Virus record (IMG/VR): IMGVR_UViG_3300027710_000022
Coordinates: 1 to 64,000 of that record
Source: a virus
Taxonomy: Duplodnaviria > Caudoviricetes
Direction: 5' to 3' (one strand)
Length of the DNA: 64,000 nucleotides
This document shows positions 7,512-45,237 of the stretch, one piece after another (the stretch's first letter is position 1; each line of letters starts with the position of its first letter). The notes under the pieces are model-generated. The model was not told the DNA's origin, searched no databases, and worked only from the letters and a program-made list of their open reading frames with translations. Position numbers and translations under genes: made by a program.

Positions 7512-8939
7512 ATGAAATTATTAGACATTGTATATGAATCTGTTGTTGACGAGGGGTTAAAAGTCACTCAAGACGAATTCATGCAAAGAGTTAAGCGTAA
7601 ATTCAAGAATGATTTAGTTACACTACCTAATGGTAAAAAAGTTCCTCGTTATGACTTTTCCAAAACAGTTTATAAAGGTGCTAGAGTTCCTATAACTTTT
7701 TATTGTAACAAAATAGGTAAGGACGGTAAACCACATGGTACACAACAAGTGGGTGCTTTAAACAACATGTTAAATAGAAACGATGGTTGTAAATTGTGTG
7801 GTGCTGAGAACACATCATCTCGTTTTGGTCATAATCAAGATAAGTTTATAAAAAAAGCGGAAGAAAAATGGGGAAAGGGTAGATGGGACTACTCTAACTT
7901 AAAATATACAGGGAGTGAAGAACCTGTAGATATTATCTGTCACAGAAAAGATGAAAATGGTGTGGAGCATGGACCATTTAGAATTAATAGAGCACAGTGG
8001 TTCTTAACAAAGAATAATCCCATGTATTGTAAACAATGTTCCAATGAATATCGTGCAAATTCAAGAACTGAAAAATCACGTACCCGTGAGGAGTTTATAA
8101 AAAAGGCTGAAGAAGTAAACGGTAAGGGTACATACGATTATAGTCAGATGATTTATAAACAAGGTAAGGGTAAGGAACCTGTAAAAAATATCATATGTCA
8201 TAAAAAAGATGAGAATGGTGTGGAACACGGTTTGTTTAATGTGAAACTGGCACAAAGTTTAATTGCCCAAGAGAGACCTGTAGGTTGTCCAAAGTGTGGA
8301 AAACTTAAGAAAACAGAAAGAGTATCATATAAAAAAGATGAATGGATTGAATTTTCTCGTAGTATACATAAATTGAAAGATGGAACACCAAAATATACCT
8401 ACGAGAAAATTGATTTGATAAAATCACCCTATATACAATCCCTTGATTATGTGATTCTAAACTGTCCAAAAAAAGGACATGGTGATTTTTCTATTAAATC
8501 TGGTGCTCATTTATATAGTAAATCAGGTTGTCCCAAATGTGCAACATCCAAAGGTGAGGATGCTGTGGCACAATATCTTTATTCTTTAGGTTATGACACA
8601 ATAAAGGATAAAAGATTTGATGACTGTACAAACGCTTGGAAAGGAATTCAATGTTACAGATATAAATTTGATGCATATTGTCCAGAACTAAACACCATAT
8701 TTGAATTTGATGGTGGATTTCATTTTATAAGAACCTTTAAACAGACCGAGGAACATTTTCAATTACGTGTAATGGATGATAAATACAAAAACAACTATTG
8801 TAAGAGGAAAGGTATCAAATTGGTGAGAATTGCATATACTGATATGAAAGATATCAAAGGACAGATTGATAAAGCATTAAAGAGTAATAAGATGTTATGG
8901 TTATCTGATAATTACCCTAAGAAGGGTTGGAACAGTTAG
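7512..8939 (+). CDS. DUF723-type Zn-ribbon repeat protein with C-terminal Vsr/DUF559-like nuclease (homing-endonuclease-like)
   Basis: Repeats of EFI..A....G.YDYS...Y...V.IIC...HG.F...GCxxC; C-terminal SKGE...KFDAYCPELNTIFEFDGGFH...D..KN.YC...I.L.RI. Confidence 0.75.
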   Translation: MKLLDIVYESVVDEGLKVTQDEFMQRVKRKFKNDLVTLPNGKKVPRYDFSKTVYKGARVPITFYCNKIGKDGKPHGTQQVGALNNMLNRNDGCKLCGAENTSSRFGHNQDKFIKKAEEKWGKGRWDYSNLKYTGSEEPVDIICHRKDENGVEHGPFRINRAQWFLTKNNPMYCKQCSNEYRANSRTEKSRTREEFIKKAEEVNGKGTYDYSQMIYKQGKGKEPVKNIICHKKDENGVEHGLFNVKLAQSLIAQERPVGCPKCGKLKKTERVSYKKDEWIEFSRSIHKLKDGTPKYTYEKIDLIKSPYIQSLDYVILNCPKKGHGDFSIKSGAHLYSKSGCPKCATSKGEDAVAQYLYSLGYDTIKDKRFDDCTNAWKGIQCYRYKFDAYCPELNTIFEFDGGFHFIRTFKQTEEHFQLRVMDDKYKNNYCKRKGIKLVRIAYTDMKDIKGQIDKALKSNKMLWLSDNYPKKGWNS

Positions 8940-9442
8940 TAATCGAATAATACTATATTATTCTCTTCATCAATACCAAGATTACTTAGGTGGAAATCTA
9001 ATAATACCAAACCTCCCAACTTTAACATATTGAACTCTTGGATAATCCCAAGTATGTTACCATATAAAACATCGTTGTTTTTAACTTCTTCTGATAGGTC
9101 GTTTTTCTGATTAACTATATAAGCCATGATGTTACTCGAATGTTTTTTAACAATATCCACTACATCCATAAATTCGGGTACATCTGTGATAAGTTTATAC
9201 TTGTGTTTTACTATAATGTACCTATCCTCATCAAATGCATTCTTCCCCGTCTTTTTCATGGAATATATCTTAGGGAAGTGTTTCAGGTCACCCTTGAATT
9301 TTAAAATTCTCTTTGATACTAATATTTCGGTGTCATCCTCGGTTAGTTTGTATATCTTACCGTTCTTTTCATATACCGACCCCCAATTACCTTTTCCGAT
9401 TTTCTCGTAGTGGGATTCCTTTATTATGTCTATTAGTTTCAT
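8936..9442 (-). CDS. Minimal protein-kinase-like protein
   Basis: Gly loop IGKGNWGSVY, IYK lysine, catalytic-loop-like DFHLSN, metal-binding LFDY. Confidence 0.65.
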   Translation of the reverse strand: MKLIDIIKESHYEKIGKGNWGSVYEKNGKIYKLTEDDTEILVSKRILKFKGDLKHFPKIYSMKKTGKNAFDEDRYIIVKHKYKLITDVPEFMDVVDIVKKHSSNIMAYIVNQKNDLSEEVKNNDVLYGNILGIIQEFNMLKLGGLVLLDFHLSNLGIDEENNIVLFDY

Positions 9443-9548
9443 GATTTATAAATATTAACGGTAAATTTTTTAGAATATGAGTACACAATATTCGTAAAAT
9501 AAACTACATTTTAAAAAAACATGGACATAGATGTCCGAATTATATATT

Positions 9549-10964
9549 ATGAAAATCAACGAACTTTACGAAACGGTAATTAATTATCAAACACAGAACA
9601 GGGTATTCTTTCAGAATGCCGAGAATTGGGACATTAGAAGATTGGGTGAAATGTATAAAGAAGGTGAACTAATCTTGCAGGATTGGTTTCAACGAGACTA
9701 TTGTTGGAACAAACCTCAGATATGTTCATTAATGCACACCTTGCTACACACCCCAACTTTATTACCCGAGATTGTACTCATCAGAATCGGAGACAAGTAC
9801 CACGTGGCTGACGGTCACCAAAGACTTCGTAGTATTTTATTGGAAGTTTTAACCAATCCCGATTTCAAGTACTTTTCAAAGGAACTTACCGAATCAACCA
9901 AGTACTTTAACGTGGGACCTAAGAATGCAGAACTATGGAAGGAGTTTAGTAGGGAGATTGAAAGAAAAACTATTACAGTTAAAGTTATCATCAATAATAA
10001 CTTGGATGAAAATGAATTACGTAACCTCAGTTCTTATGTCTTTAAGAAATGGAATAATGGTACAGCTTTGAGTCCTGCTGAAAAGAGAGGAGCATTTCCA
10101 TCCGATTTAAATATCAATATCGTTCAAAGACTTAAAAATAACATCCCAGTGGAGAAACAAATATCTCTATTGGTTTCAAGAACGTCAAGTAAGAATAAGT
10201 TTAATGAGTTGGTGGAAAAGGTTTTCTTTCACTTCATGAATCCAAATGCACTACATGACCCAAATGACGATGGGTATAGTACCATACATTCCTATTCCGA
10301 AGATGAATACAGTGGTAAATTTAAAACCTTCTATAAGTTGTTTAACGTTATGACGGATACGGTTTATAACTATACCAACTTCAATGGACATTTTGGACCA
10401 GGTTCTTGTTGTATGAGAGATGTTCTTACCTTTGTGAATGATTTATATCTTAAGAACGAAATTAAATCCTTTGATGAGTACAGTTGGTACCTTACATCTG
10501 TTCTTGATACTCTACATACAACTTATTACAATAACAAACGATTTGACGATTACCATGGAGGTAACTACGAAATAATTGATATGGAAATCAATAACACTTG
10601 GTTTAAAGGTTTCTTCTGCCATTTCGGTAAAGGTCAAGATCATAAATTCGAAAATCGTAGAACATTCCTATATGACAATAGAGAGTTGTTTGGCAAACTT
10701 ATTGAGTACGACCACCAAAGATTGTTTACACAGGTACAGAAACAAATAAAATATATTGAACAAAATAGAATCTGTGTTGGATTCGATGGTGGCGGTTGCA
10801 GATACCACGGGACCGAACCTTTGTCATATGGTGAAATGGAAGGTGACCATATCGTTGAACATACCAATGGAGGAAAAACGGTTATCGAAAACCTTCAAAT
10901 GTTATGTATGGAATGCCATTCCGAAAAAACAAAACAATTCAATACAAAAGAAATTGTTGAATAA
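9549..10964 (+). CDS. DUF262 plus C-terminal HNH nuclease (GmrSD-like)
   Basis: FQRDYCW and DGHQRL in DUF262; GDHIVEHTNGGKTVIENLQMLCMECH in HNH. Confidence 0.8.
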   Translation: MKINELYETVINYQTQNRVFFQNAENWDIRRLGEMYKEGELILQDWFQRDYCWNKPQICSLMHTLLHTPTLLPEIVLIRIGDKYHVADGHQRLRSILLEVLTNPDFKYFSKELTESTKYFNVGPKNAELWKEFSREIERKTITVKVIINNNLDENELRNLSSYVFKKWNNGTALSPAEKRGAFPSDLNINIVQRLKNNIPVEKQISLLVSRTSSKNKFNELVEKVFFHFMNPNALHDPNDDGYSTIHSYSEDEYSGKFKTFYKLFNVMTDTVYNYTNFNGHFGPGSCCMRDVLTFVNDLYLKNEIKSFDEYSWYLTSVLDTLHTTYYNNKRFDDYHGGNYEIIDMEINNTWFKGFFCHFGKGQDHKFENRRTFLYDNRELFGKLIEYDHQRLFTQVQKQIKYIEQNRICVGFDGGGCRYHGTEPLSYGEMEGDHIVEHTNGGKTVIENLQMLCMECHSEKTKQFNTKEIVE

Positions 10965-10995
10965 AATATACTTATCTTTGTAAAAACTTAATACT

Positions 10996-11118
10996 ATGTC
11001 AAAATCAACTACAGTACGTCCACACAACTTCCAAAGAGTTGTTAAGACCAAGAACGGTCCAGTTGTAAAGAATTGTATCCGTAAGGGTCATACCAGAACA
11101 ACAAAGAAAAGAGCTTAG
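10996..11118 (+). CDS. 40-aa basic peptide
   Basis: MSKSTTVRPHNFQRVVKTKNGPVVKNCIRKGHTRTTKKRA; own TATCTTTG promoter (10973-10980) and terminator. Confidence 0.6.
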   Translation: MSKSTTVRPHNFQRVVKTKNGPVVKNCIRKGHTRTTKKRA

Positions 11119-11132
11119 ATTTTTTCAAAATT

Positions 11133-11162: not shown

Positions 11163-11190
11163 ATTTCAAACCATAATATTTATATAACAT

Positions 11191-12036
11191 ATGAAAAGTT
11201 TAAATGAACAAACATCCCGCATCAAACAAATGATGGGATTAAATGAACAAACATCGTTGGATGAAATTGGTTATGGGGCATATGCAATGCAACAAGCAGG
11301 AAAAACATCCATTCAAACCACAGTATCACCAGAAAGTAAATCGATTGCGGACAAATTACGTAATTCAGTTGGGCATGAAGAATTTCTTAATGATATTAAA
11401 TTAATTAAAAACACCAAACAATTTTGGGAAGTGGATGCCGCTATAAGAAAATTTAGAGCCGATAGACCAGATTATGGTTTTGAGAAATTGGCAAATAGTG
11501 GTGGTAATTATGGTAGAGGGGTAATGACCTCAGTTGTTGAACATCTTAAATCAATTGGTATTCAATCCGCACCGGCAAACCAATTTAGTAGTAGTATTGA
11601 AATTCTAAGTAAACCAACTGTTGTCAAACAACAATGGGTTAAAAATAATGGTTTCCCATTAAAGTTTGGACAAATGACCGAAAAGTACCCAAATGGTATT
11701 ATCGGTAAATTCCAAGTTGCATTAAATTCGGGATTGAATGGGGATGGTTATTTTGGTTCAACAACTGAAAATAAAGTAAAGGTGAAATTTCCTCAGTATA
11801 AAAGAGAAATAGGGGTAACTGAAGAAATGTATAATACAATTGTAAAAAATGTTGCTGTTAGTAAAGACCTAAAGACAACATACGATATGAACACACAAGC
11901 AGGTAAAGATGCATATCTACAACAACAATTGAAAACCACACCATCGTTTAACCCTGCAGCCAAATATTCACAAGTAACCGCACAACAACAAGCTAATGCC
12001 GATGCACTTAAAAACGGTCAACCGTTACCCAAATAA
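11191..12036 (+). CDS. Leader-bearing hypothetical protein with a peptidoglycan-binding-like segment
   Basis: MKSLNEQ..RIKQMMGLNEQ leader; FQVALNSGLNGDGYFGSTT. Confidence 0.6.
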   Translation: MKSLNEQTSRIKQMMGLNEQTSLDEIGYGAYAMQQAGKTSIQTTVSPESKSIADKLRNSVGHEEFLNDIKLIKNTKQFWEVDAAIRKFRADRPDYGFEKLANSGGNYGRGVMTSVVEHLKSIGIQSAPANQFSSSIEILSKPTVVKQQWVKNNGFPLKFGQMTEKYPNGIIGKFQVALNSGLNGDGYFGSTTENKVKVKFPQYKREIGVTEEMYNTIVKNVAVSKDLKTTYDMNTQAGKDAYLQQQLKTTPSFNPAAKYSQVTAQQQANADALKNGQPLPK

Positions 12037-14174: not shown

Positions 14175-14537
14175 ATGAAAGTTATTATATCAGAGTCCCA
14201 ATTAAGGACCATTATTGAACAACAAACCACCAACCTTACCGTTCCCGAGCAAACCCTATTGGGTTTCTTAAATCGGTTCCTTAAAGGGGAAGAAGGGGAG
14301 TTTCAGAATACCCCCATAGATCAGCTTAGAAAGACGATGTTGTTTAATAGTAAGACAATATACCCGATGGCACAGAAGTTAATTGAGAAGAAAACCACCA
14401 GTAAGAAAACCTACGACGATAAGACTTTTAATTCCCTGTTTATGGCCATGGATAAATCCATCACAAAGGAACAAAGATATATGTTCTTTAAGGAAGGTGG
14501 TTCCATCACAGACATAAAGTACAATTCACAGTTTTAA
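14175..14537 (+). CDS. Leader-bearing hypothetical protein
   Basis: MKVIISESQLRTIIEQ N-terminus. Confidence 0.7.
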   Translation: MKVIISESQLRTIIEQQTTNLTVPEQTLLGFLNRFLKGEEGEFQNTPIDQLRKTMLFNSKTIYPMAQKLIEKKTTSKKTYDDKTFNSLFMAMDKSITKEQRYMFFKEGGSITDIKYNSQF

Positions 14538-14873: not shown

Positions 14874-14996
14874 ATGGGAACTGCAGCAAAAAAACCACGT
14901 GCAATGAGAAGTGTACGTTCAGGAAGAAAGAAAATGGAAATCTATAAAAAGAATCAAGAAATTCTTAAGAAGTATTTGAAATTAGCTAAAGGGTAA
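14874..14996 (+). CDS. 40-aa basic peptide
   Basis: MGTAAKKPRAMRSVRSGRKKMEIYKKNQEILKKYLKLAKG; TATTTATA upstream; stop overlaps the next ATG. Confidence 0.6.
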   Translation: MGTAAKKPRAMRSVRSGRKKMEIYKKNQEILKKYLKLAKG

Positions 14997-15634
14997 TGAA
15001 ATTTGAAAATATCATTATTGAAATGATTCAACATGATGTTGAGGAGATTGCAACGAAAGAAAAAGAACTCGTTGGTAAAGGAGCATTTCATAATGTGTAT
15101 CCATCAAATAAAAATCCAAATATAGTTTATAAGATTGGGTTTGATGAGGATGTTAATGGTTGGGTGGATTTATTCAAAAGTCGTCCCGATATTTTTCCGA
15201 AGGTGTATGGTGCGGGTCACGTTAACATCAAATTGAAAAAACAAGTAACGAACTTCTCTTGGAGAACTGGTGAATTTAAACCTATTACATATAACCCCGG
15301 AGATACTGTTAAAGTAAAGTATGTTGCGGTTGAGAGGTTGGATACCGATAAATCAAAACAACATTGGAATTCGTTGGCTAATGTTATTTCAACAATGTCA
15401 GGTAAATCATTACAAACATATCTTACAAGTTTGGGGATGGATGAGGAAATGGAAGAAGAATTTTTATCTCTTGGTGAAAAAATAAAAGAAACGGGTAATG
15501 ATTTCATTTATGAAATCTTTGTTGAGTTATACAATCTTATTCATTCTGTATACGAATTGAAACCAACTGCTGATGTTCATGTCGGTAACTATGGATATGA
15601 TAAGGATGGTAACTTAAAATGCTTGGATATTTAA
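14996..15634 (+). CDS. Minimal protein-kinase-like protein
   Basis: LVGKGAFHNVY, VYK, VAVERL, DVHVGNYG, KCLDI. Confidence 0.7.
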   Translation: MKFENIIIEMIQHDVEEIATKEKELVGKGAFHNVYPSNKNPNIVYKIGFDEDVNGWVDLFKSRPDIFPKVYGAGHVNIKLKKQVTNFSWRTGEFKPITYNPGDTVKVKYVAVERLDTDKSKQHWNSLANVISTMSGKSLQTYLTSLGMDEEMEEEFLSLGEKIKETGNDFIYEIFVELYNLIHSVYELKPTADVHVGNYGYDKDGNLKCLDI

Positions 15635-15638: not shown

Positions 15639-16697
15639 ATGAAGTTACTTGATGTTATATTTGAATCGGTAATTGAGTTAAATGAAAAAATGACTCAAGA
15701 TGAGTTTATTGATAAATCCAATAAAGTTCATGGAGACAGATATGACTATAAAGACGTAAATTATGTTAATAACAGAACTAATGTAACAATTATCTGTAAA
15801 AAACATGGACCGTTTAGAGTCATTCCAAGTAATTTTTTGGCGGGAGGTAATTGCCCCGAGTGTGGAAAAGAAAGTAGAAGACAAAAACAAATAAGTAATA
15901 CGGACGAATTCATAAAAAGGTCAATCGAAAGACATGGGGATAAATACGATTATACTAAGGTCGATTATAAAACCGCTAAAATTCCGGTTACCATCACTTG
16001 CCCAAAACACGGAGATTTTCAAATTACACCAAACAAACATCTGTTAGGTAGTGGATGTAAAAAATGTCATTTTGATAGAAAAAGACATTCGGTTGATGAT
16101 TTTATTAGAAAGGCAAAACAAAAACATGGAGATACATATGATTATAGTAATGTAAAATATGTAAATGACATGACTCCTGTTGAAATTATATGTGCAAAAC
16201 ACGGACCCTTCTATGCATCCCCAAATAATCACATAAGTAAAGGTTCAGGATGTGCACCATGTAAACATTCTAAAGGTGAAAAAATGTTAAATCAATTATT
16301 GGAAGATAAAGGTTTAAAATTTGAGACAGAATTTAAGTTTAGTGAATGTATTGGTTATAGTGATGAACATACATGTATTAAATCTAGAAAATTAAAATTT
16401 GATTTTTATGTGCCAGAATTAAATACGTTAATTGAATATGATGGAGCATTTCATTTTATTCAAATGGGAATGGTTAACGACGAGCAATTTTTAAGGGATA
16501 TATTAAATGATAAACAGAAAAATGATTTTACTAAACGTAAAGGAATTAAATTAATTCGTATCGCTTATACTGATTTTGATAGTATATCTGAAGAATTAGA
16601 AAATGGTTTAAATAGTAATAAACAACTATATTTAAGTAAAAACTATCCCACGGATAAGGGTTGGGTAAGTTTTGATATGAAAACAATACAAAAATAA
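15639..16697 (+). CDS. DUF723-type repeat protein with C-terminal Vsr/DUF559-like nuclease
   Basis: Three repeats of HGD.YDY..V.Y......V.I.C.KHG.F...P..H..G.GCxxC; KFDFY.PE.N.LIEYDG.FH. Confidence 0.8.
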   Translation: MKLLDVIFESVIELNEKMTQDEFIDKSNKVHGDRYDYKDVNYVNNRTNVTIICKKHGPFRVIPSNFLAGGNCPECGKESRRQKQISNTDEFIKRSIERHGDKYDYTKVDYKTAKIPVTITCPKHGDFQITPNKHLLGSGCKKCHFDRKRHSVDDFIRKAKQKHGDTYDYSNVKYVNDMTPVEIICAKHGPFYASPNNHISKGSGCAPCKHSKGEKMLNQLLEDKGLKFETEFKFSECIGYSDEHTCIKSRKLKFDFYVPELNTLIEYDGAFHFIQMGMVNDEQFLRDILNDKQKNDFTKRKGIKLIRIAYTDFDSISEELENGLNSNKQLYLSKNYPTDKGWVSFDMKTIQK

Positions 16698-16704: not shown

Positions 16705-17016
16705 ATGAAACTAACAGACATACTAACGGAATCAAAATCATTTGATGAGTTTGCAGAAAAAAGAATGGGTGGAGCAACTAAGATTGCTAATAATGCCAAA
16801 GAAAAGGGTGGCCCATCAATGTTGACTTATCATCATTTTAAAGTAAAACTTCCTTACTATAAGAAAGCATCTGAAGGTAAATTTGATATGGAAGAGTCAA
16901 AGAAAGAGTTTATTAAAACATTAAAAAGTATATCTTTAGATATGAACCAAACTGAATTTCAAACAGAGGTTGGTCGTTTAGAGGTACTTGGTGAACTTAT
17001 AATCAAACATAAATAA
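16705..17016 (+). CDS. Leader-bearing hypothetical protein
   Basis: MKLTDILTES N-terminus. Confidence 0.7.
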   Translation: MKLTDILTESKSFDEFAEKRMGGATKIANNAKEKGGPSMLTYHHFKVKLPYYKKASEGKFDMEESKKEFIKTLKSISLDMNQTEFQTEVGRLEVLGELIIKHK

Positions 17017-17531
17017 TGAAATTATTAGACATTTTAAAAGAACAAGGTTATTGGAGTGATGGTGCCGATAAGGTCGCATCTGAGAAACAGAAATGTGGTA
17101 TTAGTGGACAACAAGGTAATAATTCTCGTGAAATGAGACAACAGGACAGAGAGCTTGCTGCAAGTAATAGAGCCGAAGCCAAAGCAAACGCTGCGGAACT
17201 CAAGAAGACCTTTGATATGAGATATAATAGAGATAATGAACCTTTAGATAAAGCAACCAGAAATCAAATATTTGGTGAGTATAAACAGTTTAACCAAGGT
17301 TTATTAGGTGGAGGTTCATATTCTCCCGAACAAAAATTTGCAGTCTTATATAAGGTTTATGATTGGGTTAAGAACGTACCGAGTATATCATACACCAAAA
17401 AATTATCAGTTAAATTTAACAATCCAAATATAAAATCAATCTCTCTTGAACAACTTGCTGGTTATGCAAATCAAATGGGATGGGACAATTTTATAAATTG
17501 GTATAATGCAGGTGGACCTGTCATTAAGTAA
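17016..17531 (+). CDS. Leader-bearing hypothetical protein
   Basis: MKLLDILKEQ N-terminus. Confidence 0.7.
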   Translation: MKLLDILKEQGYWSDGADKVASEKQKCGISGQQGNNSREMRQQDRELAASNRAEAKANAAELKKTFDMRYNRDNEPLDKATRNQIFGEYKQFNQGLLGGGSYSPEQKFAVLYKVYDWVKNVPSISYTKKLSVKFNNPNIKSISLEQLAGYANQMGWDNFINWYNAGGPVIK

Positions 17532-17668: not shown

Positions 17669-18052
17669 ATGGGAAAGAAAATCAAAATCACAGAAGAACA
17701 ATTAAAGAAAATAATTGCTTCTAAACAAGTAAACGAACAAAATCATTTTCCTACCAATCCAATTTCTGGACCAGTTTCCGCAGGTTCTACGGATGTGGCT
17801 AGTGAATCAGAAAGAATGATTGATAGTTTTGTTAATCAATATAAAGATTTAGTTGCAGGTTCAGAATTCGACACTGAAGAGTCTCTATTAAATGCTTGTG
17901 ATGTATTAAAATCTAAACTATGCGGTAATAACGAACCGGTAGATTATACAATGGGTAGTGATGATGAAAACATGATGCCAAACCCACCATCAGAAATTGA
18001 AATGAATGAATCGGTAATTAAAATAAAATCGGAATTTAATAGATTTTTATAA
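17669..18052 (+). CDS. Leader-bearing acidic hypothetical protein
   Basis: MGKKIKITEEQLKKII...VNEQ; C-terminal MNESV..IKSEF.RF. Confidence 0.7.
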   Translation: MGKKIKITEEQLKKIIASKQVNEQNHFPTNPISGPVSAGSTDVASESERMIDSFVNQYKDLVAGSEFDTEESLLNACDVLKSKLCGNNEPVDYTMGSDDENMMPNPPSEIEMNESVIKIKSEFNRFL

Positions 18053-18315: not shown

Positions 18316-18924
18316 ATGAAAATAGTATTAACCGAAAATCAATACAAATCTGTTATTCTTGAAGAAACGAATGGTATTGACTCATTTATTGGTGAGTTGT
18401 TAACCGCTTACCCAAGATTGGAGTCTCATATTGATTTAGTTAAGAAATTCATAGAAGAATCAAATTGTCAAAATATTGAATTTGGTACCTTTAAGTTACC
18501 TGCCGCTGGTATATCATTACACAACAAAGTTGTTATCAATAATAAAGTATTAAAATACACATTAGAAAATACCCTATTTGTTATTTTCCATGAAGTTGCT
18601 CATCAATACCAATACAAGAAATATGGTTCAGATATGATGCACAGATTTTATGTTGGGGAGGTTGATATGGATGAAGCTGTTAGATTTTTAAAATATACGG
18701 AAAATGTTGCGGATCAATTTGGGTTGAGAAAGTGTAGAGAATTTGTTAAATTAGGCTTATTAACCAAGGAATACATTCCCAAAATGGGCGGATATGATAA
18801 TTTTAGTGATATGATGTTCGTGAACTATCTTAACATACTTAGGGATAAAATAAAAGAAAGTGGTGAAACGGATGATGAAAAAATAAGTGAGTCTCTTTAT
18901 AACTGGGCGATTGTAAAATTATAA
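18316..18924 (+). CDS. Leader-bearing zincin-like (HExxH) protein
   Basis: MKIVLTENQY leader; IFHEVAHQYQY. Confidence 0.65.
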   Translation: MKIVLTENQYKSVILEETNGIDSFIGELLTAYPRLESHIDLVKKFIEESNCQNIEFGTFKLPAAGISLHNKVVINNKVLKYTLENTLFVIFHEVAHQYQYKKYGSDMMHRFYVGEVDMDEAVRFLKYTENVADQFGLRKCREFVKLGLLTKEYIPKMGGYDNFSDMMFVNYLNILRDKIKESGETDDEKISESLYNWAIVKL

Positions 18925-18925: not shown

Positions 18926-19276
18926 ATGAAAATAGTATTAACAGAATCACAATTAAAGTGTATTATTGAATCTGAGAAAAACGGAGTTATACATTGTGAC
19001 GGTTGTGGGTGGGAATGGAAGAAATCAGATGGGGGAAAAGATATATATGTGTGTCATAAATGTGGACATGACAATGAGAAATTAAATGAAGATGATGGTG
19101 AGGAAAGAAAAGATGTTTACAGTTCTTTAACTGACAAACAAATTAAAAGTATTGATGATTTAAACAAGGACGCAAAATTCTTGAAATGTAAGGCGTGTAG
19201 AAAATTATACACCCAAACAACGTACAAAAAGAAAAAATCGTTACCCATTTGTCCTTGGTGCGGGAAACATAATTAA
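18926..19276 (+). CDS. Leader-bearing double zinc-ribbon protein
   Basis: CDGC/CHKC and CKAC/CPWC pairs. Confidence 0.7.
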   Translation: MKIVLTESQLKCIIESEKNGVIHCDGCGWEWKKSDGGKDIYVCHKCGHDNEKLNEDDGEERKDVYSSLTDKQIKSIDDLNKDAKFLKCKACRKLYTQTTYKKKKSLPICPWCGKHN

Positions 19277-19312: not shown

Positions 19313-20581
19313 ATGAAGAAAATAATAGTGACAGAAAATCAAGCAAGAGTAATTGTTAATCATTTTATTAATGAACAAAATGAGATAAAAACAGAAGGGA
19401 TTACTGTTGACTTTGGAGCTGTTTGGCCTATGGGTAAATGGAAACTAACTAATGAGCAGATAACACAGATTACTCAAAAGGCAATACAAATAACCAATTT
19501 TATAACTAAACATAAGGGTAGTAAAATAACAATTCAAATAGAAGCCGGAGAAAGTCAAATTACAAATAAAGATAATGAAGTGTCACCACCAGTTGAATTA
19601 GCACAAGGAGTATTATCACAAAAAAGGGGTGAGTCTATGGTAAATTTCTTAAAAAATTATTTCCAATCATTGGTAGGTAAGACTATAACACAAAATGAAT
19701 TACCAAACATTCCTGAACCTAAAACAATAATTGGTACAACTCCATATAAAAAGGGTGACATTACAGATCCTAAAACAGGTAAAGTAGACCCACAGAAGGC
19801 TGCTGTTTATCAAAATGAACAATTTGTTAGAGCGGTGATTACTGCATCAAAAGATTACGAATGTCTTGTGGGTATGGAAATTACCATTGGATACTATCAG
19901 GGTCAAAATAAAGCGAATCACGAATGTGATGAGGCTATTTTTGATTTAAGAATGAACGGAATATCGTTAGGTGTGGTTAATTTAAATAACTCAAGTTTAG
20001 ATATGGGAACTGATTATGCAAAAAATAATCTTCAAAGAAAACAAACGAATTACGAAAAAACAGTATCAGAATTTGAAAGGTTGCTTGCTGCCGGAACATA
20101 TAAAGAAAGGGATAGAAAAAAATACGTTCCAGAACAACCAACAATCGCTTGGCCGCAATCATTTAGGTTACAGGCATCTAAACTTGGATATAAAACAGTA
20201 GAACCGTTTGTTGAGGCTTTACAAACAATTAATGACTCTTTTAAACAATATGGTAGAAAAAGTGATGGTAAAAGTGGTGGAAACAGATCTCAAACTTTTA
20301 TACTAGACGGAGCAAAGGCTAAAACTATAATTGATAATTCACCTTCGGATAAAATAGTTTTATCTATCGTCCCATTGGTAACAAAAGATGGTAATTACAA
20401 AATATTTTATCAGACGGGTACACACGCAGACACTCCATGGGTAACTATTAAAAGTAAAACGTCCCCTGACCCACTATTTAACGGGGAACCAAACGTGGGT
20501 ATGGGTAGGGGTAGTACAAAGGAGACAATTCTTTTACAAACTGACCTATGCGGTAACCCAATTACTAAACCCCAACCTTAA
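19313..20581 (+). CDS. Leader-bearing protein with a divergent OmpA-C-like domain
   Basis: MKKIIVTENQ leader; ITIQIEAGES...N....LSQKRGESMVNFL resembles an OmpA-like peptidoglycan-binding domain. Confidence 0.55.
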   Translation: MKKIIVTENQARVIVNHFINEQNEIKTEGITVDFGAVWPMGKWKLTNEQITQITQKAIQITNFITKHKGSKITIQIEAGESQITNKDNEVSPPVELAQGVLSQKRGESMVNFLKNYFQSLVGKTITQNELPNIPEPKTIIGTTPYKKGDITDPKTGKVDPQKAAVYQNEQFVRAVITASKDYECLVGMEITIGYYQGQNKANHECDEAIFDLRMNGISLGVVNLNNSSLDMGTDYAKNNLQRKQTNYEKTVSEFERLLAAGTYKERDRKKYVPEQPTIAWPQSFRLQASKLGYKTVEPFVEALQTINDSFKQYGRKSDGKSGGNRSQTFILDGAKAKTIIDNSPSDKIVLSIVPLVTKDGNYKIFYQTGTHADTPWVTIKSKTSPDPLFNGEPNVGMGRGSTKETILLQTDLCGNPITKPQP

Positions 20582-21697: not shown

Positions 21698-21726
21698 AAA
21701 AAAAGGGACTTAACGTCCCTTTTTTT
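21698..21726. terminator. Bidirectional intrinsic terminator
   Basis: A-run AGGGAC TTAAC GTCCCT T-run between convergent genes. Confidence 0.8.
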
Positions 21727-23491
21727 ATATCTCTTCTTGACCATCCTGTTGGGGTTCTTGTGGTACCTCAGGATTAGGTTGTTGTACTTTTTCTTTTTTC
21801 TTCTTAGGAGGTAATCCGTGTTGAATGTCACCGTATTTTCCACCCTCATAACCAACCATAGTCGGTACTCTTTTTCCTTCGATTACGGTTAATCTATGAG
21901 ACAAATCTTCATCCCACATTTGTTTACTAACTAAATAACCTAACGCTTCACCACCATCGGATAATGTTGGATTATCAATTATTACATAGAAAGCATCTCC
22001 ATTATCTGCAGAATAAGATTTAACGGCATATCTCTTACCTTGTTCATCTTCAGTTCTCATCATTTTTTCTTCTGAGAATCTATCATTATACTCTATCTTA
22101 GTTGTACCGTCCATTACCCATTCAAATGAACTGATGTGATAGATACCAAATAAGTGAGAAGATTTACTTTGGTAAATTCTATAGTTGTCATCCTTCTGTC
22201 CTTTTCTAACAAGAACATAGTCTTTTTGCATGAAATCATTAACAAGATATTCAATACCTGGCTTCCCAATTTGTTTTAATTTCCTATCTAATTTTTCACG
22301 ATATGGATAATCAGGAGGACTTGTTTTTAATATTGCGGTTAATAATTTACTATTTGAAATTCTTGATGTTGCATCATGTAATTGCATCATCGTAATATAA
22401 GTCGTCTTTAATTCTGGTGTCATTGCATTCCAAGAATCGACTTCTTTAATTTTACCACCTACAGCAATATATTCTGTCATTCTCTGTGGTGTTTGTGCTG
22501 AAAATTCATTTGGATCACCAGGAGTTTCATTGATAACGTCCGTAACCTTTGCAGATTCTAATTCTTCTTGAGATAATGCTCTCCATTCAAATTTATCTCT
22601 TTCACCATCTAATTGTGGCCAAGTACTAACAATAAAATCCCAACTCTTGGTTTCATCTCCATCATTAAACATTGAACTTACAGTATAAGAACCGTAGTTG
22701 TTTATTTGGATTGCTGCCATATGAAATCTAGCCTCATTGGTATCATCACTTAAATAATTTCTATTATCATCAATAAGGAAATAGAATGTTTTCTTATCAC
22801 TTCTTCTGTAGTAACCGTATTGATTGGTACCATTACCGTAAAGATAGTTTCCTTCATCGTCAGTAATTCTAACATCTCCCCTCCATGTAACACACCAAGG
22901 TGAATTTATTCTACCGTTTCTTCTAAATTTAATGTACTGGTCTCTGTGTAAAGATTGGTAGTAATAACCCATCCTTTTTGCATGAGTCTCACTTAATACT
23001 TTATATACTCTTACACCACCTTTATTTATAATGCAATTCTCATCACTAAACCACATTGGTTTCGACGCCTCAATTTTTGCTACGTTTGGTTGGTTACCGT
23101 CTGACGCAAATATTGCATCAAGTTTAGCCTTTTCATCCTCAACATCGTTTTCCTTTTCTTCACCACCCATTTCAAATTTACCAAACTCAACTAAAAAAGA
23201 AACTAAGTCTTTAAATTTAAAAACTTGTATTTGTTTTAAATCATTTAATGAATATTTCTGTTTGTCCGGAAATCTACCGTCGTGTCTTTTTAAAAATCTT
23301 AAGACACCTGAATTCTCAATAGAAATTTGATTTTTAATGTTGGTGTGTCTATTAAAGACCTTTTCTCCTTGCTCGTCTGTTAACTCGGGAACCTCAGTTC
23401 TCCATTTAGTCATTAGTTCATTGAAAAAGGTTTTTTGATTTGCTTTTATCTCCTCAAAAACCATATCAAATATTAAATCATTAATCTTCAT
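21725..23491 (-). CDS. Large leader-bearing hypothetical phage protein
   Basis: 588 aa; MKINDLIFDMVFEE; SPWCVT...FYFLID motif; TATTTATA upstream. Confidence 0.75.
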   Translation of the reverse strand: MKINDLIFDMVFEEIKANQKTFFNELMTKWRTEVPELTDEQGEKVFNRHTNIKNQISIENSGVLRFLKRHDGRFPDKQKYSLNDLKQIQVFKFKDLVSFLVEFGKFEMGGEEKENDVEDEKAKLDAIFASDGNQPNVAKIEASKPMWFSDENCIINKGGVRVYKVLSETHAKRMGYYYQSLHRDQYIKFRRNGRINSPWCVTWRGDVRITDDEGNYLYGNGTNQYGYYRRSDKKTFYFLIDDNRNYLSDDTNEARFHMAAIQINNYGSYTVSSMFNDGDETKSWDFIVSTWPQLDGERDKFEWRALSQEELESAKVTDVINETPGDPNEFSAQTPQRMTEYIAVGGKIKEVDSWNAMTPELKTTYITMMQLHDATSRISNSKLLTAILKTSPPDYPYREKLDRKLKQIGKPGIEYLVNDFMQKDYVLVRKGQKDDNYRIYQSKSSHLFGIYHISSFEWVMDGTTKIEYNDRFSEEKMMRTEDEQGKRYAVKSYSADNGDAFYVIIDNPTLSDGGEALGYLVSKQMWDEDLSHRLTVIEGKRVPTMVGYEGGKYGDIQHGLPPKKKKEKVQQPNPEVPQEPQQDGQEEI

Positions 23492-23980: not shown

Positions 23981-24547
23981 ATGGGAGAACCGATACTAAA
24001 AATAGGATATTACTCAATTTATCAAATAAAGACAGCTAGAGGGGTAAAATATAAAGTTGATAGTGGTAAGACCATATACATCGAAAGGTTCAAAAAATTC
24101 ATCATTAACCCCTATAGAGACACTAAAGAGTTCACTTCTCTTGATAAGGCTAAAGAATATGTGGGTCTTAAATTAGTAAAAAGAGGTCAAGAAAAAAAGA
24201 AAAAAATTGATAAATTACCGAAATCTTTGTATTTGGTGTTAATTAAAGAAGAGTCGACAGGTAAGACATTTGTTAAGGTTGGTATAACATCTAAACGATT
24301 CATAATGAGACGTTTTAGTAAAGCATATGGATATGAAGGTTATATTGTTGAGACGATATTAAGAAGAATAGATACACCTAACGCCGAAAAATTAGAAGAT
24401 GATATTAAAGAAAAACTTAATAAAAAAAAATCTGTAAAAAAATACAGACCAATTTTAGAATCTTTTTCAGGTTATTCTGAATGTTTTAATTATGATGGAT
24501 TAGACGAAATTGTTAAAATTTTCGATGAACTAACAAAAAATTGTTAG
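23981..24547 (+). CDS. GIY-YIG superfamily (T5orf172-like) nuclease
   Basis: LYLVLI...FVKVGITS...RRF...AEKLE..I...GYSECF. Confidence 0.65.
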   Translation: MGEPILKIGYYSIYQIKTARGVKYKVDSGKTIYIERFKKFIINPYRDTKEFTSLDKAKEYVGLKLVKRGQEKKKKIDKLPKSLYLVLIKEESTGKTFVKVGITSKRFIMRRFSKAYGYEGYIVETILRRIDTPNAEKLEDDIKEKLNKKKSVKKYRPILESFSGYSECFNYDGLDEIVKIFDELTKNC

Positions 24548-31745: not shown

Positions 31746-32075
31746 ATGGAAAAAAACATTATATCCGAAAATTTGATTAAAGAGGCCGTTGATAAGGTCT
31801 TATTTGAACAAATGTCAAAAGTATCAAGACAGGATTTTAGTAGAGTACAGTTTAAAATAGAGGAATTACAAAATTCTTTAGGTGAAACGGTAAAAGAACT
31901 GAGGAAATTAGAAGATTCTATACCATCAGGACTAAAAAGCACGTCAAACGCTAGAATTTCAGGTATAACCGTGAGTTTAAATAACGCCCAAAAACTATTA
32001 ATTCAACTTAAAGATAAAGTTAGACAATATAAGAAGTCTATTTACACACAATCTTTAGACGAGAAGAAAAAATAA
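31746..32075 (+). CDS. Leader-bearing coiled-coil protein
   Basis: MEKNIISENLIKEAVDKVLFEQ. Confidence 0.7.
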   Translation: MEKNIISENLIKEAVDKVLFEQMSKVSRQDFSRVQFKIEELQNSLGETVKELRKLEDSIPSGLKSTSNARISGITVSLNNAQKLLIQLKDKVRQYKKSIYTQSLDEKKK

Positions 32076-41246: not shown

Positions 41247-41504
41247 ATGAGAATGGTCATTAACGAAAAACAACTAAAATTGATACTATCAACTGAAAAT
41301 CAAGATATTGAAGAACAGGGGGAAGTTGCGACTGAACCATCCGCAGGCACATCAAGTACTCAAGCTGGAGGTCAAGGGTACCCTGAGGTTGGGAAATGGG
41401 AAAGTGGTATAGAGAGAGGTCCTGCCAATCAAATTGGGGTTACAAAATGGGCGGATATCGTTGGTGCAAATTTAAAAAGAGGTAAGTCCAATCCACTAAA
41501 ATAA
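41247..41504 (+). CDS. Leader-bearing small protein
   Basis: MRMVINEKQLKLIL; KWESGIERGPAN motif. Confidence 0.7.
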   Translation: MRMVINEKQLKLILSTENQDIEEQGEVATEPSAGTSSTQAGGQGYPEVGKWESGIERGPANQIGVTKWADIVGANLKRGKSNPLK

Positions 41505-41539
41505 GAAATTACAGATATTTATATAGAAATCAAAAAATA

Positions 41540-42748
41540 ATGGTTTATCAAACAAGAAATATAGTTACAGAATCCGAAAGAAATAGAATTAGTTCAATAC
41601 ACGGATTTGTACCAAAAAAACGTGATTATATATTTGAAGCATGTATCACGGTTGATGGAAGATACTTTGTTATACAAGACGAAGTGTTTGATATACAAGA
41701 ACAAAAAACAATAGGAAACGTTTGGGGTTCATTGGATGTTTTTAAAACAATTTTTGAGAGTGTTAAATTAGAAGATGAGGGTTATTCACAAATTAGAGAA
41801 AACGTCCTTTCTTTACCAATATTAGAATCACAACAAAACCTTTATGGTTTAAGGGACATATTACTTGAATTTAATTTTTTACAAGATACGTGGTTAGGTA
41901 GACAATTTAAAAGTGCTGGAGATAGTGTTGCCGATTTTGCAAAAACATCATATGAAGGTGTAAAGAAATTTGGACTTGCAGTATCTCAAGGGGATTGGAT
42001 GGGTATTTTAAAATTATTAGGTCAAGGTGTTAAATACGTTTTAAGAAAATTAAAAGATGCCTTATATAGTAATCTAGGTATGATTGTAGATGCGGTTTTA
42101 ATTGCAACAGGTGTTGGTGCAGGAGCGACAAAAATTGCTTGGGGATTGGTTGTAGCTTTAGACCTTTATCAATTAATAAGTGATGATTGGCCAGAAGAAG
42201 AAAAAAATGATCCGTTTTGGTTAAAATGTTTATTCTTAGGTTTTGATATATTAGGATTTACAACTGCAGCCGCGGCTGCTAAAGCGGCTAAAGCGGGAAT
42301 TATGCCAATTAAAACACTTGTAAGTAATCCAGCAAAAATTGCACAATATTTTGAAAAGAACCCAAAGGTTAAAGGAATGATAACCTCAATGGTTGACGGA
42401 ATAAAACAAGTGCCAGCCTTATTACAATCGGTAATGAAGACACTTTCGGCTAAATTTCCTAAAGGTGCAAGTTTTATTAACGGTGTTTTAGGTGGATTAA
42501 AAACAATATCAACAAGATTCACCGAAAGTTTACAGAGATTGTTAGGACAAAAAGCGGGTACAGGAGCATCTGCTGGTGCGAAGACCACTGGTATACTTTA
42601 CGGTTTTGAGAAAGCAATCGGTGGACACGAAACTAAAGGTGCGACTATGGCTACTAATAGTGCTGCTAATGGTATGGACCCTATGGTATCGAACCAATAT
42701 GCTGAATTAGTTAGAACTAAATATAATGGTAAAGATCCATGGGATTAA
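41540..42748 (+). CDS. Putative virion/ejection protein with hydrophobic helices
   Basis: IVTESERNRI leader-like segment; G/A-rich hydrophobic stretches (LGMIVDAVLIATGVGAG; AAAAAKAAKAG). Confidence 0.55.
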   Translation: MVYQTRNIVTESERNRISSIHGFVPKKRDYIFEACITVDGRYFVIQDEVFDIQEQKTIGNVWGSLDVFKTIFESVKLEDEGYSQIRENVLSLPILESQQNLYGLRDILLEFNFLQDTWLGRQFKSAGDSVADFAKTSYEGVKKFGLAVSQGDWMGILKLLGQGVKYVLRKLKDALYSNLGMIVDAVLIATGVGAGATKIAWGLVVALDLYQLISDDWPEEEKNDPFWLKCLFLGFDILGFTTAAAAAKAAKAGIMPIKTLVSNPAKIAQYFEKNPKVKGMITSMVDGIKQVPALLQSVMKTLSAKFPKGASFINGVLGGLKTISTRFTESLQRLLGQKAGTGASAGAKTTGILYGFEKAIGGHETKGATMATNSAANGMDPMVSNQYAELVRTKYNGKDPWD

Positions 42749-42770: not shown

Positions 42771-44591
42771 ATGAAAGATAATACAAACCCAATTGACAGA
42801 ATTAAATTAATGATGTCATATGATAATGAAAAAACTTTAAATGAAAATTTAAATGTTTTAAACTTAATAAGTGAAGATGAGTCAACTGAGGTTGGGGAAC
42901 AATTCAGGAAAGAAGTTGCAAGTAGATTTAAAAATACCGCTACAGGTGCTAAGGAAACCGCTATAATTTCTGCAATGGGTAAAGAATTTAAATTGGCAGA
43001 TAATGTTATTGCAACAGCATTAACAAAAGACCTTACTCAATTAACTAAAGAACTTGAAGATGCGATAAAGTTGGATTTGAAAAATGGAGTAAGAGTATCA
43101 ACAACAAATACATTGGGGCCAGCAGCGAAAGAAGCCTCTAAATTAAAGGCAATGAAAGAAATGTCATTAAAAAGTAGTGAATTAAAGGCATCAGGAAAAA
43201 ATATAACAACTAAAGAAATTGATGATATAGTTTTAAGAGCACAAACGGAATCTAAAGAGATGGCTAGAAAATTAGAAACTGGTGTTGTTAGTAAAGAAGG
43301 AAAAAAAGCTGCCAATCAAACAAAGAAAATTGCGGATTTAGAAGCAAAGATTAAACAATTAGAAACAGTTAAAACACCTCAACAAGCGGAAGCAGCAATT
43401 AAAAATGAGGTTAACATTACTATGACTCAGGGAGGTGCCGCAGGAACACACGCTGAAATGCAAGCAATTAAAGAAATGGCACCGGAAGCTAAAGTGGTTG
43501 CTCAAGAATCCAAAGCAATAGTTGAAACAATGAAACCATCTAAATGGGAAAAATTCAAAAAAATTGCAGGTAGATTAAGTCCAAAATATTGGATTATGTT
43601 AGGTTTAGCTGGTGTAGGTGGTTGGTATCTTTGGAAATTTTTTAAAGGTGGAACAACAAAACCAGGAGATCAATTATTTGGTAAATGTTTAGATGATGTT
43701 ATAGACGATAACGGAACAACGATTGTAAATACATCGGGTGGAGATCCAGTGGTACAGGTTAAAAATACAGGTAATACGGAATATGATCAAAAGGGTGGAT
43801 TATGGTTTTACAACAATGGTAGAGTGTGGATGGTTGATGGGACTAAAAAAGGTAGATGGTCATGTAAAGGTAAAGAAACAGTAATTGCAGAACAAGGAGA
43901 CGGTAATCCAAATACAGGTATTGGTAACATTAATATTACTTGGGATGGTGAATCGAGTCCGGTAACAACAGAACCGATAAAAACGGAACCAGTAAAAACG
44001 GATAATCCAAAATATCACGATTGTGCTTCAAAAGATTTTCCGTTTGAATTTGGATGTATTTCACCAAAAATTGCGGAAATACAAAAATGTTTAGGTATAA
44101 CACCACAAAAAGGTTATTTTGGACCTAAGACTAAAAAAGGTTTAGAAGATTTACAATATAATTTATCAGGTGGTATTACTAAAGAAACATATGATAAGAT
44201 TATATCAGCTTGTAACCCAACAACTGGTTCTACAACTGGTACAACTACAGGGTCTACAACAGGTTCTACCACTTCAGTAACGGGTACAACTACAGGTTCT
44301 ACAACTGGTAATACAACAACCGCACCAATAACACCTCCAGCAGTACCTGCTGAACCTGTATACGATAGAAACAGATTACAAGAATTATTGGCTAGTAAAA
44401 ATTTAGTTAAAAAACGTAATGGTGTTATTGTTAAATGGAAAGGTCCTGAATTAGAAGGTAACGACTATTACATCTTAGATAAATATTTGAAAGACCAAGG
44501 TTATATTCAAAAGAAACAAAGAGAAACTGGTGATAGAGACGATGAAGATGTAACAATGAAATATAAGTGGAAATTACAAGGAGAAGAATAG
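42771..44591 (+). CDS. Putative virion protein: coiled coil, TM helix, peptidoglycan-binding-like segment, Thr/Gly/Ser-rich tract
   Basis: YWIMLGLAGVGGWYLW; IQKCLG....GYFGPKT; TTGSTTGTTTGSTTGSTT. Confidence 0.6.
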   Translation: MKDNTNPIDRIKLMMSYDNEKTLNENLNVLNLISEDESTEVGEQFRKEVASRFKNTATGAKETAIISAMGKEFKLADNVIATALTKDLTQLTKELEDAIKLDLKNGVRVSTTNTLGPAAKEASKLKAMKEMSLKSSELKASGKNITTKEIDDIVLRAQTESKEMARKLETGVVSKEGKKAANQTKKIADLEAKIKQLETVKTPQQAEAAIKNEVNITMTQGGAAGTHAEMQAIKEMAPEAKVVAQESKAIVETMKPSKWEKFKKIAGRLSPKYWIMLGLAGVGGWYLWKFFKGGTTKPGDQLFGKCLDDVIDDNGTTIVNTSGGDPVVQVKNTGNTEYDQKGGLWFYNNGRVWMVDGTKKGRWSCKGKETVIAEQGDGNPNTGIGNINITWDGESSPVTTEPIKTEPVKTDNPKYHDCASKDFPFEFGCISPKIAEIQKCLGITPQKGYFGPKTKKGLEDLQYNLSGGITKETYDKIISACNPTTGSTTGTTTGSTTGSTTSVTGTTTGSTTGNTTTAPITPPAVPAEPVYDRNRLQELLASKNLVKKRNGVIVKWKGPELEGNDYYILDKYLKDQGYIQKKQRETGDRDDEDVTMKYKWKLQGEE

Positions 44592-44592
44592 T

Positions 44593-45237
44593 ATGAAAGA
44601 TATTAAAAAAATAGTAAGTGAAAACCTCTCAAAGAAGCATTCTATAAACGAATCCTTTGAGAGGATTTTTCTAAATGAAAATGATGAAGATAAATTCGGT
44701 TTAACCATACAATATTTGGGTAAATTGATAGATGAGGGATATGACAATGAACAAATAGAAAATGTAGTAAACGAACAATTTGATTGGTTAAAAAAACTAT
44801 TCACCCCAAATAAACAAAATCCACAAGATGCATCTACAAGAAGTGGTATTTTAGATAAAGTAGGTGGTGGAGCCATTTCACAATTTAAAGAATATGCAAT
44901 AACGACATTATTAAACCTAATAGGGTTTAAAGGTCCATTAGTGAGTGCAATGGCAACTGCAATGAGTGAAATGACATTAAGTGATTTAATTGCTGTCTTT
45001 AGAGATAAACAAAGTTGTTCATATCATGGTAGTACTGTTGCAGATGCATTATCAGAATCATTAGTGGTATATATTATTTCATCAAGTACTGAAGAAGATT
45101 CAATGGCGGCAAATTTCTTAAGAAATACAGTATTTGAATACATAAAATCAAGTCAATTTGGTGAAATGTTAGCAAATGCTGTTTGTAATGTTGCATACAA
45201 AACAAAATCAAGAATTATTTCAAACATTAATGAATAA
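44593..45237 (+). CDS. Leader-bearing hypothetical protein
   Basis: MKDIKKIVSENL...INES. Confidence 0.65.
   Translation: MKDIKKIVSENLSKKHSINESFERIFLNENDEDKFGLTIQYLGKLIDEGYDNEQIENVVNEQFDWLKKLFTPNKQNPQDASTRSGILDKVGGGAISQFKEYAITTLLNLIGFKGPLVSAMATAMSEMTLSDLIAVFRDKQSCSYHGSTVADALSESLVVYIISSSTEEDSMAANFLRNTVFEYIKSSQFGEMLANAVCNVAYKTKSRIISNINE

Follow-up and report, generated by a model that had tools for sequence, protein, structure and literature searches.

The window analysed here is a 64,000-nucleotide stretch of tailed-phage DNA (Caudoviricetes; positions 1 to 64,000 of IMG/VR record IMGVR_UViG_3300027710_000022). Between positions 7,512 and 45,237 it holds about 20 genes for unrelated proteins that share three classes of short N-terminal leader: class A follows the pattern MKLxD(I/L)xxE, class B MK-III-(T/S)ExQ(L/Y)Kx(L/I) and class C LxEQxxRIKxMMGLxE. 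The leaders are 9–25 residues long and precede 19 unrelated kinds of body, and every gene that bears one lies directly behind the element TATTTATA or in an abutting operon that it heads. An earlier note on this DNA had proposed that the leaders direct their proteins into the capsid, as the capsid-targeting sequences (CTS) of phage T4 do. Strong class A or B N-termini are found in 12 window genes and class C in two, with about six weaker variants. Named by the coordinate of their first base, with (-) for the reverse strand, the strong class A members are 7512, 9442(-), 15639, 16705 and 17016 (15.7–22.9 bits in the scans described below), and the strong class B members are 14175, 17669, 18316, 18926, 19313, 24990(-) and 41247 (14.2–31.7 bits). 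Among the weaker ones are 14996, in which Asn replaces Asp, 23491(-), in which Asp replaces the last Glu, and 31746.

The leaders are a property of protein starts. Position-specific scoring matrices (PSSMs) built from independent IMG/VR examples score 14–35 bits at the starts of proteins, against an internal maximum of 9–18 bits across ~200,000 positions in 1,169 proteins; 10 bits is exceeded internally at seven of these positions for class A and at one for class B. A six-frame regular-expression scan of the window found the motifs essentially confined to the starts of open reading frames (ORFs). Class C (11191 and 42771; MNLQExIxRIKxMMG(L/I)xxE) is a real family too, with 13 distinct N-terminal matches to one internal match over all fetched loci. 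The 20 bodies fall into 19 clusters, with 7512 and 15639 as the sole paralogues, and on this count and the PSSM background both chance and simple paralogy were rejected as the source of the common starts. The observations in the earlier note have therefore held: its 17 listed starts are all present and translate as described, the leader signal on its roughly 20 unrelated proteins is far above chance, and the genome-wide motif search that it called for places the motifs nearly exclusively at protein starts. Leader copies differ in synonymous codons (TTA, CTA or CTT; GAC or GAT; five Ser codons), so it is the peptide that is conserved and not the DNA.

The same starts are widespread in phage metagenomes. 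A search of IMG/VR for TATTTATA followed by a degenerate leader start returned at least 120 stretches for class B and at least 119 for class A, contigs of 200–336 kb included. Class B proved to be conserved beyond the search pattern, with a hydrophobic residue at position 10 in 84% of examples and at position 13 in 97% (consensus MKIIITESQ(L/Y)Kx(L/I)I). In 596 Gb of genomes from bacteria and archaea the string MKIIITE(S)Q turns up just four times, each on a contig of a metagenome-assembled genome, three of these contigs being ~3–4 kb long; set beside the many IMG/VR stretches, this makes the leaders a trait of a phage clade. Literature searches returned no description of these motifs. Two familiar kinds of N-terminal signal were rejected: Sec, Tat or lipoprotein signals because the leaders have no hydrophobic core and, by eye, a sliding-clamp-binding motif (QLxLF/PIP box) for class B, as hydrophobic residues 10 and 13 fit neither register and class A has no Gln.

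The window itself (~32% guanine plus cytosine) has near-identical contigs in IMG/VR, with 93–97% protein identity. One of them, G001 (131 kb, 39% complete by CheckV), overlaps the window from its position 70,523 onward. Two larger relatives are syntenic with the window: G005 (335,630 bp, rated 100% complete) at 70–84% nucleotide identity, and G002 (310,542 bp, with direct terminal repeats) at 65–76%. Together these contigs make the window part of an uncultured jumbo phage of ~0.33 Mb. Megablast and tblastn searches of cultured phages found neither a close relative nor any virion proteome; the only matches there were a glycosyltransferase and a weak N-terminal match of the major capsid protein (MCP) to Xanthomonas and Stenotrophomonas jumbo phages, with further matches in huge metagenomic phages. 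Two promoter-like signatures are seen in the window, TATTTATA and the Bacteroidota-type TAnnTTTG, which lies upstream of leftward early genes at 0.5–7 kb; the latter promoter type suggests that the host is probably a freshwater member of the Bacteroidota.

The leader genes share their promoter with the genes of the head and tail. In G005, the terminase, portal, protease and scaffold genes and many tail genes each have TATTTATA in the 60 nt before them, and the element stands directly upstream of 12 of 19 leader genes compared with 51 of 397 others. This position, together with a resemblance to the T4 late promoter TATAAATA, is why TATTTATA is read as a late promoter, and the leader genes would accordingly be expressed late. 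In many genes the element ends 3–7 nt (mode 4) ahead of the ATG, a spacing that suggests that late-type transcripts may be leaderless or nearly so, which would be unusual.

A protease of the type that would cut such leaders is encoded by the relatives. The Pfam family Peptidase_S77, that of T4 gp21, scores 82–88 bits (cut-off 27) in each of the four large leader-bearing relatives searched (G002–G005, 220–336 kb). The prohead protease gene that the earlier note wanted located is thus present in all four, whereas the window and G001 both stop short of the head module; PF03420 was not found in G001, as is explained by its 39% completeness. The head genes of G002 stand in the T4 order, namely large terminase, T4-type portal, a 243-residue protein, the protease, a 405-residue protein in the scaffold position and MCP, and those of G005 are collinear; no family match was found for the 405-residue protein. 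The protease family has 348 matches in IMG/VR, leader-bearing contigs among them, and a protease contig 89% identical to that of G005 comes from the same sample as G001. In most of the 23 head-module loci whose flanks are complete, conserved class B genes adjoin the MCP gene. A complex prediction for the G005 protease and a 63-residue class B protein gave a score of 0.00, which is no evidence on binding in either direction.

Hydrophobic-x-Glu forms the end of all three classes, as the earlier note had described for most of the leaders; an exception is 23491(-), which has Asp at P1. In class A the motif ends the leader at residue 9, with I, L or V at P3; in class C an (L/I/V)-x-Glu ends it at residues 17–20. 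In class B, an (I/L/V)-(T/S)-Glu at residue 7 is followed by a second hydrophobic-x-Glu at residues 14–24, for which the summed per-position frequency is ~86% compared with ~22% expected from background; in 42% of examples the second Glu is residue 15 or 16, compared with 2% in the background. AlphaFold2 models built on family alignments for 18316 and 16705 limit low confidence to the leader and are confident for the body: in the former, residues 1–15 mostly have a predicted local distance difference test (pLDDT) score below 50 and the body 84–95, and in the latter residues 1–10 average 56 and the remainder is at 90 or above. In these models the leaders are low-confidence extensions outside the folded body, and are probably flexible.

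Cargo that meets a Glu-specific protease should be under selection against exposed hydrophobic-x-Glu, and the bodies were examined for this by comparing observed counts with a shuffled expectation, using one value per homology cluster and bootstrapping. Depletion is clear in class A, where the observed/expected ratio is 0.84 (0.71–0.97), compared with 1.11 (1.08–1.15) in 524 non-leader clusters; class B, at 1.01 (0.89–1.14), shows just a trend. The control motif hydrophobic-x-Asp is not depleted (1.06 in class A, 1.21 in class B, 1.13 in non-leader clusters), and hydrophobic-x-Gln is raised in both cargo sets (1.31 compared with 1.08).

The junction between leader and body is also where genomes differ. 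Differences between the window and G001 are mainly replacements, insertions and deletions at leader genes. At 24990(-) the two are the same through codon 26 (..DSQLSE↓QM) and unrelated downstream; at 7512 the homology stops within the leader, and G001 has another gene behind the same leader; at 19313 the leader is retained and the body has strongly diverged from its G001 counterpart. Leaders are exchanged as well. The class-A-like 14996 has two homologues in G002 (264362 and 264909) that bear class B leaders on the same body, and the zincin-like family of 18316 mostly bears class B, with some members carrying class C, an A/C hybrid or no leader, the junction Glu being invariant throughout. The cargo of 16705 has 3,002 homologues; the best 120 of these share 74–97% identity with the query, and a class A leader stands on 58 of them and a class B leader on 41. 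Exchange of leader classes on one near-identical cargo points to a common function. Swaps of cargo behind one leader and of leaders on one cargo are also compatible with a short portable tag, which would let cargo genes come, go and replace one another behind a fixed promoter-plus-leader cassette.

The cargo itself is diverse and in large part nameless: Pfam, PHROGs and ESM Atlas left most bodies unnamed, and look-ups of NCBI clusters likewise gave no names. Of the domains proposed in the earlier note, the HNH/DUF723 nuclease is firm (7512: PF05265, E 7.5e-9; phrog_559, E 1.1e-37); alignments of 7512 with its homologues from other phages begin only at about residue 17. The kinase assignment is moderate and applies to 9442(-) alone (phrog_18305, E 1.8e-5); for 14996 no Pfam or PHROG family match was found, and a kinase-like glycine-loop motif was seen by eye. 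The zincin label is partly borne out: HExxH is invariant in 18316, the family alignment keeps H92, E93, H96 and the junction Glu16 without change, and Pfam SprT-like matches below its cut-off. Foldseek searches of the PDB with the 18316 and 16705 models gave no significant match, the weak top rows for 18316 being Zn peptidases. The Zn ribbon is weakly indicated, by matches of the Cys-rich body of 18926 that lie below their cut-offs, and the OmpA-like label, an ESM Atlas lead of 0.81 only, was not confirmed. None of the 20 cargo proteins has a transmembrane segment. Over the window, G002 and G005, the bodies of leader genes have a median isoelectric point of 9.0, compared with 5.75 for other genes; within the IMG/VR sets, only class A is biased towards basic bodies. 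Basic bodies are consistent with T4-type targeting because the internal proteins of T4 are basic.

Table 1. Leader-bearing genes and TATTTATA elements in the window. The arrow marks the junction of leader and body; PSSM scores are in bits and name the class of the matrix.
Feature	Position	Strand	Score and context
TATTTATA, late-type promoter element	7500..7507	+	4 nt before ATG of the 7512 gene
Class A, MKLLDIVYE↓S, HNH/DUF723 nuclease-like body	7512..8939	+	PSSM A 15.7
Class A, MKLIDIIKE↓S, kinase-like body	8936..9442	-	PSSM A 22.8; TATTTATA at 9447-9454, 4 nt upstream
GmrSD_N + HNH protein, possible class-A-like start at 9549 (MKINELYE↓T), doubtful member	9531..10964	+	PSSM below threshold
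Class C, MKSLNEQTSRIKQMMGLNE↓Q	11191..12036	+	TATTTATA at 11177-11184; gene missing from G001
Class B, MKVIISESQLRTIIE↓Q	14175..14537	+	PSSM B 31.7; operon behind TATTTATA at 13175
Weak class A, MKFENIIIE↓M, glycine-loop body	14996..15634	+	operon behind TATTTATA at 14853
Class A, HNH nuclease-like, paralogue of 7512	15639..16697	+	PSSM A 20.3; phrog_559, E 8.2e-70
Class A, MKLTDILTE↓S, 103-residue helical cargo of a very large family	16705..17016	+	PSSM A 21.1
Class A, MKLLDILKE↓Q	17016..17531	+	PSSM A 22.9
Class B, MGKKIKITEEQLKKII...VNE↓Q	17669..18052	+	PSSM B 29.7; TATTTATA at 17645-17652
Class B, zincin-like (HExxH) body	18316..18924	+	PSSM B 29.9; TATTTATA at 18304-18311
Class B, MKIVLTESQLKCIIE↓S, Cys-rich body	18926..19276	+	PSSM B 30.6
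Class B, MKKIIVTENQ...INE↓Q, 422-residue ORFan	19313..20581	+	PSSM B 14.2; TATTTATA at 19288-19295
Weak class A, MKINDLIFD↓M, with VFE↓E at residue 14; 588 residues, conserved in relatives	21725..23491	-	two TATTTATA, at 23496 and 23507
Class B, MKKYIFTEGQLKKIIDSQLSE↓QM	24544..24990	-	PSSM B 19.9
Degenerate class B, MEKNIISENLIKEAVDKVLFE↓Q	31746..32075	+	G005 orthologue, MEKQIITENQVKNIL, scores 22.9 for class B
Class B, 85-residue protein	41247..41504	+	PSSM B 18.1; TATTTATA at 41235-41242
Weak hybrid B/C start, NIVTESERNRISSIHG	41540..42748	+	PSSM B 6.9; TATTTATA at 41516-41523
Class C, ..IDRIKLMMSYDNEKTLNE↓N	42771..44591	+	G001 orthologue retains KMKLMMSYD
Doubtful leader, MKDIKKIVSE↓N	44593..45237	+	seen by eye, without PSSM support
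TATTTATA copies ending 3–7 nt before an ATG	7500-7507, 9447-9454(-), 18304-18311, 40202-40209, 41235-41242, 51445-51452(-)		also at G005 terminase and portal genes

Some neighbouring features deserve mention in their own right. The doubtful member at 9531 matches Pfam PF03235 and PF01844, and its G001 orthologue begins at an internal Met. GmrSD_N with HNH is the architecture of type IV restriction enzymes, which attack DNA with glucosylated hydroxymethylcytosine; here it is encoded by a phage, and the protein may be aimed at competing phages. The 85-residue protein at 41247 is equivalent to the N-terminus of a 669-residue G005 protein (78819-80828); both have a class B leader and an acidic/Pro-Thr linker followed by AGTSSxQAGGxGYPEVGKWESG, a recurrent module that is found on many contigs in proteins of 76 to 669 residues. 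A 79-residue ORF behind TATTTATA (13198-13437), a gene that G001 does not have, matches just a short segment of tail-fibre/collar proteins (phrog_9116, E 4e-10). The glycosyltransferase/methyltransferase block at 32545-39089 is in G001 (105351-109969) partly swapped for other genes, and one of its genes has 50% identity to a Xanthomonas jumbo phage gene. Among the head genes of G002 (locus L148), the large terminase (10453-13458) contains LAGLIDADG-type homing-endonuclease domains with an intein-splicing match below cut-off, and the portal gene (13516-16290) contains an intein; G005 has neither insertion. Other N-terminal families were also met: in G001, seven tandem small genes (48775-53927) share the start M..(F/P)FKFF(x)G in a stretch that has no TATTTATA, and in locus L311 of a 642-kb uncultured phage (LR756502.1, 72486-114075) at least 14 of 63 ORFs start with MK(H/Y)LKxYExF behind TTAATATATA. 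The latter genome has a weak S77-like match of 22.7 bits, which is below the cut-off.

It is fairly probable that the three leader classes are T4-type capsid-targeting propeptides on an expanded and fast-changing set of cargo. Late in infection, the leader-bearing proteins would be made alongside the head proteins from TATTTATA promoters. The leader would confer affinity for the scaffolding core of the assembling prohead, where a gp21-type (S77) protease would cut after the Glu of the terminal hydrophobic-x-Glu and so release the mature protein within the head. Proteins resembling nucleases, kinases and zincins, together with many others without a name, might then leave the head with the DNA at the next infection. 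Every sequence-level prediction of capsid targeting that could be examined turned out as expected: the four large relatives searched encode an S77 protease and a T4-like head module, the leaders end in L/I-x-Glu and the promoter is of a late type. Swaps that fall exactly behind the leader, the low model confidence of the leaders and the class A depletion point the same way. The 'effector arsenal' of the earlier note goes further than this and is conjectural, because most bodies are ORFans.

Several observations weigh against capsid targeting. The window and G001 do not extend to the head module, so a protease for this phage is assumed from relatives at 65–84% nucleotide identity, and most leader genes lie in a block distant from the head module. 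Hydrophobic-x-Glu is a short and common motif, present at ~2% of positions. Conservation in class B extends beyond the first Glu, and some family members (MKIIITEEQAKRL↓SFDEF) have no terminal hydrophobic-x-Glu, so part of the leader might remain on the mature protein. The depletion signal is weak for class B. Cargo such as the HNH homing-endonuclease-like proteins is no obvious candidate for packaging. Cleavage, virion association and ejection of the leader proteins, finally, are predictions.

The properties of class B would also suit a different function, in which the leaders would address or dock their proteins somewhere other than the inside of the capsid (another part of the virion, a replication or transcription factory, a chaperone or partner) and are perhaps never removed. 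Class B is longer than the T4 CTS, its strand-plus-amphipathic-helix pattern (hydrophobic in 97% at residue 13 and in 84% at residue 10) continues past the first Glu, some members have no terminal hydrophobic-x-Glu, and class B cargo lacks a clear depletion of that motif and a basic bias; moreover, three distinct codes could stand for three destinations. However, A, B and C are exchanged on near-identical cargo, which points to one common function. Co-regulation ties the leaders to head genes, the T4 propeptides are matched by class A at each position, and no alternative receptor is known. We consider a docking tag rather unlikely.

It is improbable that the conserved start acts at the level of expression, enhancing translation initiation on late mRNAs that are nearly leaderless, in a host that seldom relies on Shine-Dalgarno sequences, with the peptide as a by-product. 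The short distance from TATTTATA to the ATG, which may leave these mRNAs with almost no 5' untranslated region, and the A/U-rich leader codons would be in keeping with such a role. Synonymous codons vary freely, however, while the acidic/hydrophobic amino-acid pattern is kept across hundreds of contigs. Many genes with the 4-nt spacing have no leader (40214, 51440(-) and 25291(-)), and genes inside operons that have no promoter of their own still bear one (14175, 16705, 17016, 18926 and 24990(-)).

Even less probable is that the common 5' ends are mere scars of recombination, the promoter and first codons serving as homology arms and the peptide having no function. Replacement of cargo exactly behind the leader between the window and G001, and the location of leader genes in hot spots of insertion and deletion, could be so explained. 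Arms would be conserved as DNA, whereas leader copies vary synonymously and their peptide pattern is kept between genomes with 65–75% nucleotide identity and in remotely related contigs; the internal-protein loci of T4 show such shuffling at the leader too, so that it fits capsid targeting. Least credible is a role as N-terminal degrons or recognition tags by which a host or phage protease or unfoldase would time cytoplasmic turnover: the motifs are short, N-terminal, probably flexible (low AlphaFold confidence) and start with Met-basic-hydrophobic, but no evidence points that way, and the terminal Glu, the depletion of hydrophobic-x-Glu in cargo and the co-expression with head genes would be left unexplained.

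If the leaders are capsid addresses, the proteins that are injected ahead of gene expression could be read directly from the sequences of hundreds of uncultured jumbo phages. Such injected proteins would be the likeliest to disarm host defences, and the leaders would provide a direct catalogue of candidate anti-defence and takeover effectors, with nuclease-like, kinase-like and zincin-like proteins and many new families among them. It would also follow that the small internal-protein system of T4 can grow to ~5% of a genome with several interchangeable codes, and that there are natural portable tags with which foreign proteins could be loaded into large phage heads. A bolder version, which we regard as unlikely, is that the classes are a sequence-readable sorting code in a large clade of uncultured freshwater jumbo phages, reaching to the 0.6-Mb huge phages with their own code MK(H/Y)LKxYExF. 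That code would list the whole injected proteome, with thousands of unknown early-acting effectors, or, more radically, would route the classes to different destinations or times through a receptor without a T4 counterpart.

The closest known system is that of T4, in which IPI, IPII, IPIII, Alt and gp24 carry CTS or propeptides that are cleaved off by the prohead protease gp21 (Mullaney & Black 1996; PMC9026906, PMC3012670). The T4 CTS has 10–19 residues, gp21 cuts after L/I-x-Glu, and in the IPIII tag residues 4 and 7 are needed for targeting and residues 8 and 10 for processing (PMC9026906). The N-termini in NC_000866 are MKTYQEFIAE↓A for IPII and IPIII, MAKINELLRE↓S for gp24 and MELITELFDE↓D for Alt, so that the T4 tag and cut site given in the earlier note are correct. 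When class A (MKLLDIIKE↓S) is aligned with these at the cut site, all the sequences have hydrophobic residues at P7, P4 and P3, an acidic residue at P5 and Glu at P1. As in T4, a short N-terminal tag that ends in (I/L)-x-Glu stands on unrelated proteins, in a clade with a gp21-family protease and a head module in T4 order, the tagged genes share a promoter with head genes, and cargo loci change fast behind a conserved leader. The internal-protein loci of T-even phages are reportedly hyperplastic (Repoila et al. 1994, EMBO J), with unrelated ORFs exchanged behind a conserved promoter and CTS-coding segment; here, in contrast, exchange occurs at many loci over tens of kilobases and involves the leader classes too. 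Other differences from T4 are the peptide sequences themselves, the three interchangeable classes, the number of clients (~20 genes in 64 kb and at least 20–30 per genome, compared with a handful in T4) and the size of the cargo, which reaches 600 residues and includes enzyme-like proteins; cleavage and packaging are here predictions.

A second precedent is provided by phiKZ, 201phi2-1 and SPN3US, which have processed head and ejection proteins and the proteases gp175/gp245 (PMC5694885, PMC7411985, PMC10052503). These too are jumbo phages; their S77-related protease cuts after Glu, many of their internal head proteins carry propeptides, and the SPN3US paralogues gp53 and gp54 share identical N-termini. 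Their cut site is (A/S/G)-x-Glu and their propeptides mostly exceed 100 residues, in contrast with hydrophobic-x-Glu and 9–25 residues here; with I, L, V or F at P3, the present leaders are not of the long-propeptide type. The sequences would fit a system that has expanded to ~5% of genes with three interchangeable codes, of which T4 has a much smaller version, and such leaders look to be a general feature of large phages whose heads are T4-like. T4 provides a precedent for the principle, as do phiKZ-like phages in a different form; what is new is the motifs, the exchangeability of the three classes, how many clients there are and how broad the uncultured clade is.

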